DNA of 64,000 bases from Desulfarculia bacterium (GTDB taxonomy: Bacteria > Desulfobacterota > Desulfarculia > G963662305), in contig OY759352.1 of the NCBI GenBank assembly GCA_963662305.1, positions 2,013,620 to 2,077,619 on the forward strand, written 5' to 3'. Of the stretch, positions 58,575-61,709 are shown piece after piece. Position numbers and translations under genes: made by a program. The notes beneath the pieces are model-generated. The model did not search any database, was not told where the DNA came from, and was given only the letters and a program-made list of their open reading frames with translations. The first letter of the stretch is position 1, and every line of letters begins with the position of its first letter.

Positions 58575-61500
58575 CTATACATGGCCCACAGCCGCGTCCA
58601 GCACAGGCTCCTCCTCTTCCTCGGGCGCGGCCAGGGCGTCGATCTGGCTGAAGACCTCCTGGTCGGTGAAATGCTTCAGATAGATGGCCCCGGTGGGGCA
58701 CTTGGAGTTGCAAAGTCCGTCGCCCTTGCACAACACCGGGTTGACCACCGCCTTTTTGCCCTGTTTGGTGGTCCGCAGTTCAATGGCGTTGTAGGAACAG
58801 ACCTCCATGCAGGCCCCGCAGCCCATGCATTTTTTCTCGTCCACCTCGCAGATTGAGCCCGAGACCGTGACGATGTCGCGGGAGAGCAGGGTCATGGCCC
58901 GGCCCGCCGCGCCGTAGGCCTGGTTGATGGTTTCCGGGATGTGCTTGGGGTAATGGGCCGTGCCGCAGAGGTAAACGCCTTCCGTGGCGAACTCCACGGG
59001 CCGCAGTTTGACATGGGCCTCCTTAAAGAAATTGTCCGGTCCCAGGGTGACCTTGAACTGCTGGGAGAGCTCCTGGCAGTCCTCCCGGGGCACCACGGCC
59101 GCGGCCAGGGAGATGAAGTCGGCGTCGATGGCCAGTTCCTGGCCCAGGATGGGGTCGCTGATGCCCACCCGCAGCACGGGCCGGCCTCCCTCTTCCGCGG
59201 CCTCGACCCGGGGCGGATCCTCGGGCTCGTAGCGGATGAACTTCACGTCCTGGTTGGAGGCCTCCCGGTAACGGTCCTCCATGAAGCCGTAGGTCCTGAT
59301 GTCCCGGAACAGGATGTAGATGTCCATCTCCGGGTTCAGTTCCTTGAGCTTCAGGGCGTTTTTGATGGACTCTCCGCAGCAGATCCGGCTGCAATAGTTG
59401 CGGTCCTCATTGCGGCAGCCCACGCACTGGATCATGACCAGGGCCTGGGCCCCGGCGATCTTTTCGTCGCTGGCCACGATCCGCTCCTCCAGCTCCAGCT
59501 GAGTCAACACCCGCTCGTCCTGGCCGTAGAGGTATTCGGAGGGCTGGTACACGTCCACGCCCACGGCGATGATGGCCGCTCCGTGCCTGATCTCGCCGGG
59601 GCCCCGCTCGGAGCGGATCCGGGTCACGAAATTGCCCACATACCCGGTGGCCTCCACGATCTCGGCCTTGGCGTAGACCCGCACCAGGGGATGGCGGTAA
59701 ATCTTGCGGATCAGGCCGTCCACAAAGCCCTGCACGTCCATGTTGTCCAGGGTGTAGTGGATCTTGCGGGCCAGCCCGCCCAGCTCATCCGATTTTTCCA
59801 GGAGGTGGACCTCGTGTCCCTGCTCTGCCAGGGACAGGGCCGCGGTCATGCCGGCGATGCCGCCGCCCACCACCAGGGCCGCCTTGTGCACCGGCAGGTC
59901 GATCTCCTGCAAGGACTCCAGGTGGCAGGCCCGGGCCACGGACATGCGGGTGATGTCCTGAGCCTTTCTGGTGGCCTCCTCCTTTTCCTTGGAGTGGCAC
60001 CAGGAGCAGTGCTCCCGGATGTTGGCCATGTCGTAGTAGTACTGGTTGAGCCCCGCCTCGCGGAGAGTGTCCCGGAACAGGGGCTCCAGGGTCCGGGGGG
60101 AGCAGGCCGCCACCACCACCCGGTTCAGGTTCTTCTCCTGGATCATGTCCGTGATCTCCTTGGCCGAGTTGGTGGCGCAGGAGAAGAGCTGTTCCTGGGC
60201 GTAGACCACGTGGGGCAGGGTCTTGGCGTACTCCACCGTGGCGGGCACGTCCACGATCCGGCCGATGTTGGCCCCGCAGTGGCAGACGAACACCCCGATC
60301 CGGGGCTCCTCCTGGGAGACGTCCTTTTCCTCTGGGTAGATTCGCTCCCGGGTCAGGTCGCCCCTCCGGTAGTCCAGCAGCTCGCCGCACTGGGTCCCGG
60401 CTCCGCTGGCCGTGAAGACCGATTCGGGAATGTCCATGGGCCCCTGGAAGGCCCCGCTGACAAAAACACCGGGTTTGGTGGTGGCGATGGGATTGGCCGG
60501 ACCGGTTTTGCAGAATCCGTGCTCGTTCAGCTCGATGCCGAACATCTCCGCCATCCTCAGGTGATCCTGGGGCGGATTGAGCCCCACGGAGAGGACCACC
60601 ATCTCGAACTCTTCGGTTTTTACTCCCTGGCCGGCCGTGGCGTATTTTACGATCACGTCCTTGGTCTCTGGATTTTCCCCGGCAATGGAGACGTAGCTCC
60701 TGATAAACCTTATTCCGGGCAGCTCCTGGGTTCTCTGGTAGTACCGCTCGAAGTCCTTGCCGTAGGCCCGTACGTCGTTGTGGAAGATGACGCACTCGGC
60801 CTCGGCGTCGTGGTCTTTGGCCAGGATCACCTGTTTCTGGGTGTAGGTGCAGCACACGGCCGAGCAGTAGCTGTTGTCGCCGGGGGTGACCCGCCTGGAG
60901 CCCACGCACTGGATCCAGGCGATCTTGTGGGGGTGCTTCTTGTTCGAGGCCCGCAGGATCTCGCCCTCGTAGGGCCCGGTGGCGCACAGCAGCCGCTCGA
61001 AGTCCATGCTGGTGACCACGTTCTGGTACTTGCCGTAGCCGTAGTCGCCCGTGACCCTGGGATCGAAGACGTCGTAACCGGGAGACAGAACAATGGCCCC
61101 TACTTGTATTTCCATCTTCTCCGCCTTCTGGCGGAAGTCGATGGCTTTGTTCTGGCAGACCGTTTCACAGATGCGGCACTTTTTTTCCTTGAGATAAATG
61201 CAGCTCTCGTCGATGTAGGCGATGAGGGGGATGGCCTGGGCAAAGTAGATGTGGACGGCCTTGTTGTCGGATATCTCCTGGTTGAACCGGTCCGGGTACT
61301 GCACCGGGCAGTACTCCACGCAGGTGGTGCAGCCGGTGCACTTGTCCTCGATGATGTACCGGGGCTTCCGGGTCAGGGTCACCCTGAAATCGCCCGCCTC
61401 TCCCTCCACACCCGAGACTTCGGTGTAGGAGAGGACCTCTATGTTGGGATGCCGGCCGACCTCGACCAGCTTGGGCGAGAGAATTCACATGGAGCAGTCA

Positions 61501-61709
61501 TTGGTGGGATAGGTCTTATCCAACTGGGCCATGTGCCCACCAATGGCGGGTGATTTCTCCACCAGATAAACTTTGTACCCGGCCGTGGCCAGATCCAGGG
61601 AGGCCTGAATGCCGCTGATCCCGCCGCCAACAACCATCACATCTCCGAAATTCCTGGCTTTGCCGTTCCCGGACGGTTGCTGAATCACTTCACTTGGCAT
61701 CTGTCTCAT
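58575..61709 (-). CDS. hdrA: Heterodisulfide reductase subunit A-like flavoprotein (large HdrA/HdrL-type), selenoprotein with in-frame UGA at 61485-61487
   Basis: ORFs 61485-61760 and 58575-61409 are in the same frame; joined sequence ...[18 protein letters not shown]...[29 protein letters not shown]... places Sec at the conserved Cys of the HdrA CSMC motif; second FAD Rossmann ([15 protein letters not shown]), several Cys clusters. Confidence 0.8.
61451..61470 (-). promoter_or_regulatory. Candidate SECIS-like hairpin 14 nt downstream of the HdrA UGA
   Basis: Minus-strand RNA GCUGGUCG-AGGU-CGGCCGGC forms an 8-bp stem with a GU-containing apical loop at the distance expected for bacterial SECIS; not validated by a covariance model. 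Confidence 0.4.

Follow-up and report, generated by a model that had tools for sequence, protein, structure and literature searches.

HdrA of Methanococcus maripaludis, a subunit of heterodisulfide reductase (Hdr), has selenocysteine (Sec) at residue 197, and density obtained by cryo-electron microscopy (cryo-EM) indicates a Cys-Sec selenenylsulfide positioned between flavin adenine dinucleotide (FAD) and a [4Fe-4S] cluster (PMC13518236); HdrA proteins with a 'CxxU' motif are a recognised selenoprotein family in both bacteria and archaea (PMC1794560, PMC13188914). BamE of Geobacter metallireducens, part of a class II benzoyl-CoA reductase (BCRII), has been described from cryo-EM as a 'fused HdrA dimer with extensive domain permutation', in which Cys59 and Cys62 form a disulfide in one conformational state and have been suggested to carry the low-potential electron in the direction of BamB, from the bifurcating FAD to cluster E3; Sec19 of BamF is resolved in the same work (bioRxiv 10.64898/2026.04.10.717634). 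BamE of Desulfococcus multivorans (dmul_C24500/10) is among five genes with a UGA codon and a selenocysteine insertion sequence (SECIS), and that organism has selA, selB and selD (PMC5109826). We describe here a gene of this type in a 64,000-nucleotide stretch of contig OY759352.1 of a Desulfarculia bacterium (assembly GCA_963662305.1), the whole of which we refer to as the window. The initial annotation had reported an HdrA-type flavoprotein gene on the minus strand of the window, split in two by a TGA codon proposed to encode Sec, and had taken Sec to be established at this position of HdrA, a point that the reports on Sec197 and on the CxxU family document.

It is almost certain that the TGA splitting this gene encodes selenocysteine and is accompanied by an RNA signal of its own. 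We hold it very probable that the explanation is correct as a whole, namely that the gene encodes BamE, that the UGA is read as Sec by means of a SECIS, that the resulting Sec72 has a redox role, and that the neighbouring bamF is a second selenoprotein gene.

A single reading frame with TGA at a conserved cysteine codon

The open reading frames (ORFs) at 61485-61760 (91 aa) and 58575-61409 (944 aa) share one frame, and when 61760-58575 of the minus strand is translated continuously the TGA at 61487-61485 is the sole internal stop, in agreement with the initial annotation. The sequence around it is ACC AAT GAC TGC TCC ATG TGA ATT CTC TCG CCC AAG, corresponding to TNDCSM*ILSPK, and 26 sense codons separate the TGA from the GTG at 61409 with which the downstream ORF begins. 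The piece upstream of the TGA is present as a separate gene call of 70-71 aa in four related loci (L081, L082, L083 and L085), with matches to FAD_binding and NAD_binding_8. Because gene calls of this length are found in the 99.9%-identical contig and in the Desulfarculus relatives, translation likely starts at ATG 61700 (MPSEVIQ...) and not at ATG 61760; the N-terminal segment as first annotated is thus a real ORF in the correct frame, but its true start is probably the internal one.

We searched for homologues using the read-through protein with Cys at the site as the query, and took the best 120. Full-length homologues account for 101 of these (1006-1291 aa, 96-100% coverage), and every one has Cys at the site, within TNDCSMC-IESPK; those of 1019-1056 aa align over 97-99% of the query. 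The other 19 are the closest relatives, with 77-100% identity, and are represented by gene calls of 926-951 aa that start just after the site; some are from named Desulfarculus or Desulfarculaceae metagenome-assembled genomes (MAGs), and the closest named relatives among the matches listed are Desulfarculus sp. MAGs with ~79% identity. At the DNA level we assembled a set of at least 80 species-representative loci, of which 3 of 80 were cut by contig ends and 77 could be resolved, all counts being among the matches listed. The codon at the site is TGA in 62 of the 77, drawn from several phyla and occurring in the contexts TNDCSM*, TNDCSI*, TNECST* and TNECSM*, and TGC or TGT in the remaining 15. 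Alignment with Cys- and Sec-type sequences therefore bears out the placing of the TGA at the second Cys of the conserved TNDCSMC motif. We also looked for a domain boundary at this point, the arrangement that would make the two ORFs separate units, and rejected it, since the homologues run continuously through the site with Cys.

A hairpin conserved in nucleotides follows the TGA

The initial annotation had noted a stem-loop starting 14 nt downstream of the TGA, and comparison across genomes identifies this as a conserved SECIS. Its conserved part is a 7-bp stem in which 61469-61463 pair with 61458-61452 (CUGGUCG-AGGU-CGGCCGG, 15 nt past the UGA), closed by the apical loop AGGU at 61462-61459; an eighth pair, G61470-C61451, is an addition in this genome. 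In the Sec-type sequences (63 distinct), codons +6 to +11 (CUG GUC GAG GUC GGC CGG) have a third-position entropy of 0-0.28 bits, whereas all other degenerate codons from -20 to +40 have 0.3-1.9 bits, and the frozen block coincides exactly with the hairpin. The same six codons have third-position entropies of 0.8-1.55 bits in the 18 Cys-type sequences, and they encode LVEVGR in the Sec forms as compared with FVEC(N/S)R in the Cys forms. The main evidence for constraint at the RNA level is thus that synonymous sites are frozen only where the codon is TGA.

Pairing is maintained throughout. Across 61 distinct aligned sequences, the seven pairs of the stem are intact in 99.8% of cells, with one sequence breaking one pair; the outermost pair changes from C-G to A-U on both sides in 3 loci, and one U.G becomes U-A in 10. 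The published model of the bacterial SECIS (bSECIS) calls for a loop of 3-9 nt, a stem of 4-16 bp and a G in the first two loop positions, and further for a distance of 16-37 nt from UGA to loop and a minimum free energy (MFE) no higher than -7.5 kcal/mol (PMC13188914). The bamE hairpin lies within all of these limits, with the 4-nt loop AGGU, a stem of 7-8 bp, a spacing of 22 nt and an MFE of -14 kcal/mol.

The element also shapes the protein. Cys forms read C-IESPKFVEC(N/S)RH, with an extra Cys (in FVEC) where Sec forms keep GUC, the latter being needed for the stem.

Assignment of the gene to BamE and a second Sec-type gene in the cluster

Pfam identifies two FAD Rossmann sites in the read-through protein (residues 20-58 and 608-649) together with several Fer4 (4Fe-4S) domains. 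The best matches among solved structures are to methanogen HdrA, in three stretches of permuted order (PDB 5ODC; Table 1). The 71-codon N-terminal piece aligns to HdrA residues 147-196 of this structure, C69 and U72 are aligned with Cys194 and Cys197 of HdrA, and Lys289 with Lys409, which is the lysine at flavin N5 of HdrA; the HdrA-family CxxU motif is thus present, as C69-S-M-U72, in the thioredoxin-reductase-like (TrxR-like) FAD domain. Scores against the NCBIfam models are under their cut-offs, at 953 bits for HdrA2 (cut-off 1100) and 709 bits for HdrA (cut-off 1400), and NCBIfam holds no BamE-specific model. Judged by its sequence, the gene product is BamE, the HdrA-like electron-bifurcating subunit of a class II benzoyl-CoA reductase, and not a subunit of heterodisulfide reductase: the permuted double-HdrA layout matches the description of BamE and the genomic context confirms it, and both the scores below the HdrA and HdrA2 cut-offs and the presence of BamB, BamC, BamD and BamF as neighbours, not HdrB and HdrC, argue against HdrA in the strict sense. 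The description as an HdrA-type flavoprotein in the initial annotation accordingly stands as far as homology is concerned, but not as an assignment to HdrA proper.

The order BamB-BamC-BamD-BamE-BamF is seen in contig L081, which is 99.92% identical to the window (blastn), and recurs in most related loci. BamB (669 aa, AOR family) is encoded directly upstream in L081, beyond the end of the window, and matches chain A of the G. metallireducens crystal structure 4Z3W end to end with 1262 bits; bamC of L081 (7379-7927, 182 aa) matches chain E, G. metallireducens BamC, at 8e-87, so that both subunits are close orthologues of the Geobacter ones. For bamD the mechanical ORF reaches 63256, and the extent given in Table 1 is that of the L081 gene call (8256-9407), mapped through the blastn alignment. 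In L081 two transposase genes (1976-4548) are situated immediately upstream of bamB, and the bam cluster may therefore adjoin mobile DNA.

The bamF gene, with Pfam matches to FlpD and Fer4 and an NCBIfam match to VhuD/HdrA2, contains an in-frame TGA of its own, the translation around it reading MSAAKSFKPRILGFLCHW*AYGAADMAG. TGA is found at this Sec19 codon in 64 rows of a motif scan that includes the window, L081 and loci with Cys-type BamE, and the hairpin that follows it is nearly invariant in nucleotides across the motif-scan loci, in the presence of flanking codons that vary. The presence of two Sec-type genes, bamE and bamF, in one operon is indirect evidence that the organism decodes Sec.

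Table 1. Positions of bam cluster features in the window, and stretches of BamE aligned to HdrA
Feature	Position	Strand	Description
bamC	63456..64000	minus	small Fe-S subunit of the catalytic BamBC pair; first two codons past the window end
bamD	61976..63127	minus	HdrD-like Fe-S protein, two CCG domains and Fer4_8 (Pfam); 383 aa as called in L081
bamE read-through coding sequence	58575..61700	minus	1041 residues, ~115 kDa, predicted Sec at residue 72, TAG stop 58577-58575
N-terminal 71 codons of bamE	61488..61700	minus	GGGISG FAD-binding beta-alpha-beta, ends TNDCSM; split off by ORF finders and gene callers
bamE in-frame TGA (predicted Sec72)	61485..61487	minus	HdrA Cys197 aligns here; second Cys position of CSMC
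bamE SECIS hairpin	61451..61470	minus	GCUGGUCG-AGGU-CGGCCGGC, 8 bp, -14 kcal/mol, begins 14 nt past the TGA
bamF	57672..58523	minus	MvhD/FlpD-like [2Fe-2S] adaptor with C-terminal 2x[4Fe-4S] ferredoxin domain, 283 residues, ATG 58523
bamF in-frame TGA (predicted Sec19)	58467..58469	minus	C-H-W-U motif, FLCHW-U-AYGAADMAG
bamF SECIS hairpin	58432..58444	minus	CUGGA-GUU-UCCAG, UGA-to-apical-loop 27 nt; within predicted fold
BamE residues 22-389	HdrA 147-510 (5ODC)		TrxR-like domain with inserted ferredoxin
BamE residues 464-630	HdrA 2-168 (5ODC)		N-terminal cluster domain and start of second FAD domain
BamE residues 846-1023	HdrA 472-649 (5ODC)		C-terminal ferredoxin domain

Opposing observations and alternative explanations

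Several observations weigh against decoding of the bamE UGA as Sec in a Geobacter-like complex. The folding energy of the hairpin is ordinary when compared with dinucleotide shuffles (z = -0.9, with 36 of 200 shuffles as stable) and the sequence is G+C-rich; the fold alone is therefore no evidence, and the support comes from the comparison with other genomes. Covariation is thin, as most stem positions are invariant and the sole double change is in three related sequences. A covariance-model search, which the initial annotation had put forward as a check, went against it: Rfam gave no SECIS match either at gathering thresholds over the whole window or at E <= 10 over 57600-62000, where there were chance matches only, and the Rfam bacterial SECIS families evidently do not cover the bamE element. 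None of selA, selB, selD or tRNA-Sec is found within the 64-kb window by Pfam (~45 ORFs), Rfam or ARAGORN. The equivalence of Sec72 to Cys62 of G. metallireducens BamE is based on a CSMC motif common to the two and on residue numbering offset by 10, and not on direct alignment, and bamGHI is absent beside the cluster, which sets the complex apart from the one characterised by structure.

ARAGORN reports a 97-nt 'tRNA-Arg(gcg)' at 32505-32601 (minus), which we considered as a tRNA-Sec and rejected. It is probably a false positive, with no Rfam tRNA at this position, and is located inside the ChlD-like AAA+/VWA ORF at 30763-33012.

If the TGA were a genuine stop, the locus would be either a pseudogene or a gene split by nature, whose products would be a FAD-binding peptide of 71 residues and a body of ~935-944 residues with a start of its own. 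Gene callers do split the gene at this point in all database records, into 70-71 aa and 926-951 aa, and a purine-rich stretch, GGAGGGAGAGG, precedes the GTG that the callers take as a start. That stretch is unconserved in the nucleotides of relatives, however, where codons +27 to +32 vary freely. Conservation of the protein extends over the 26 codons between the TGA and the earliest possible start, and these align with HdrA residues 198-223. A split would furthermore sever the Rossmann FAD-binding fold from its domain, and the same TGA is kept in 62 species listed with both flanks under purifying selection. We therefore regard termination at this codon as highly unlikely. A simple error in sequencing or assembly is less credible still, and we give it almost no weight: a one-base change would restore a Cys codon, TGC or TGT, but the independent assembly L081 and a 90%-identical relative (L082) share both the TGA and the hairpin, as do 62 other genomes, and as the TGA is retained in these two, neither an error in sequencing nor a nonsense mutation of recent origin can account for it.

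A further explanation is that UGA is read as an ordinary amino acid (Trp, Cys or Gly) through near-cognate suppression or a reassigned code, with no involvement of selenium. Cys is evidently functional at the site in homologues, and the lack of Sec machinery in the 64-kb window fits this explanation as well. It is nonetheless very improbable in our estimation. TGA terminates 24 of 43 ORFs of the window and is the commonest stop there, so the genetic code is standard and reassignment is rejected; a nucleotide-frozen hairpin of the SECIS type is placed where a SelB-binding element is expected, and is lost in the Cys forms; and this arrangement recurs within the operon, in bamF, at a residue shown to be Sec in a solved homologue.

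Comparison with characterised systems and a proposed role for Sec72

The motif TNDCS(M/I)(U/C)IL is homologous in HdrA of M. maripaludis (Sec197) and of Methanothermococcus thermolithotrophicus (Cys197, 5ODC), and residue 72 of the protein described here aligns with residue 197 of both. The systems differ in that archaeal HdrA has its SECIS in the 3' untranslated region, whereas the bamE element is a bacterial in-frame hairpin that constrains codons, and in that HdrA is a single module acting with HdrBC and hydrogenase, whereas BamE is a fused double module encoded with BamD, BamBC and BamF. The likeness to G. metallireducens BCRII is closer, and includes the fused, permuted double HdrA, a CxxC-type pair by the bifurcating FAD, Sec19 in BamF, and the conserved flavin lysine (Lys289 here, Lys280 in Geobacter). 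By position in the motif, Sec72 would be equivalent to Geobacter Cys62, the second position of the pair being Cys in a disulfide in Geobacter BamE and Sec, in a predicted selenenylsulfide, here. The BamF proteins differ in their ends, as the Geobacter protein has at its end a winged-helix domain for the docking of BamI, and its gene precedes bamGHI, whereas BamF of the window terminates in a 2x[4Fe-4S] ferredoxin domain with no bamGHI following.

The D. multivorans protein is the same type of subunit, encoded in the bam cluster of an obligate anaerobe under two locus tags split by an in-frame UGA with a SECIS. We assume the same position for Sec, the two having been compared by description only. 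Organisation differs, in that bamB-D of D. multivorans are present in duplicate with etf genes between the copies, and the cluster here is a single compact bamBCDEF. A Sec-containing BamE is therefore already known, and nothing here overturns current understanding.

We propose that bamE is translated as one ~115 kDa flavin-based electron-bifurcating core subunit of an oxygen-sensitive, ATP-independent, tungsten-containing class II benzoyl-CoA reductase. The UGA at 61487-61485 would be decoded as selenocysteine, with the hairpin acting as a bacterial SECIS that recruits SelB carrying Sec-tRNA(Sec), as we infer from the general bacterial mechanism. Sec72 would replace the second Cys of the C69-S-M-U72 pair, close to the bifurcating FAD in the first of the thioredoxin-reductase-like domains. 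By analogy with structures of homologues, the Cys69-Sec72 pair may cycle between a selenol/thiol and a selenenylsulfide state, and could thereby serve as an electron relay linking the flavin and a [4Fe-4S] cluster close by, in the low-potential branch that leads to the tungsten subunit BamB.

Two bam cluster architectures

We find no bamG or bamH within 9.5 kb downstream in the window, in L081 or in L083-L085. In the window, in L081 and in the Desulfarculus loci there is no bamGHI after bamF, and their BamF carries the C-terminal 2x[4Fe-4S] ferredoxin domain (57672-58100 in the window). Desulfosarcina variabilis (L041) and others have instead a BamF with no ferredoxin domain, followed by a NuoE-like bamG and a NuoF-like bamH. 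The two arrangements do not co-occur in the loci listed (L001-L085): the fusion without bamG is seen in 39, bamG without the fusion in 30, neither in 4 and both in none. BamGHI may be encoded elsewhere, or the ferredoxin domain of BamF may take its place. We put forward tentatively, leaning slightly against it ourselves, that these loci represent a distinct and widespread five-gene class II benzoyl-CoA reductase (bamBCDEF) that lacks the NADH-linked BamGHI confurcation module, takes in electrons by way of the BamF ferredoxin domain, and uses a Cys-Sec relay in BamE. No description of a five-gene form or of the mutual exclusivity was found in the searchable literature, the main subscription papers on Bam clusters lying outside that scope.

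Some of the loci come from unexpected taxa, with bam clusters that include the bacterial-type in-frame SECIS being present in L035 (labelled as a Bathyarchaeota MAG), in L018, L068 and L080 (labelled as Hyphomicrobiales or Burkholderiales MAGs) and in L063 (labelled Enterobacteriaceae). These are probably a result of binning contamination or of horizontal transfer. That the SECIS is identical in nucleotides between phyla would fit a transfer of the cluster as a unit.

Other features of the window

A cobalamin riboswitch at 41255-41440 (minus, 110 bits) is located upstream of a TonB-dependent receptor gene (38982-41153), and heads a long minus-strand block (18143-41153). Besides a second TonB receptor, the block contains two CobN-like chelatase genes (18143-21886 and 24963-28943), a radical SAM gene, ChlI/ChlD-like ATPases and FecCD/ABC transporters. 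Towards the left end of the window are genes for a HEAT-repeat STAND NTPase and for an integrase of the phage type, at 4052-6901 (minus) and 9049-10242 (plus).

Implications

Every public gene call that we examined, for this gene and for its closest relatives, is split into a piece of 70-71 aa and a body of ~930 aa, and bamF is truncated likewise; the Sec nature of two core subunits of a key enzyme of anaerobic aromatic degradation is therefore systematically missed in metagenome-assembled genomes. The finding of TGA in most of the loci listed, together with a near-invariant SECIS, points to the selenol variant as the common natural state of BamE. If the five-gene form is real, it would have a natural Cys-Sec selenenylsulfide in its BamE relay where Geobacter has a disulfide. 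Recent cryo-EM studies of Geobacter BCRII and methanogen Hdr leave open how the Cys-Cys or Cys-Sec pair by the bifurcating flavin joins electron transfer, and natural Cys/Sec pairs of BamE are available for comparison.

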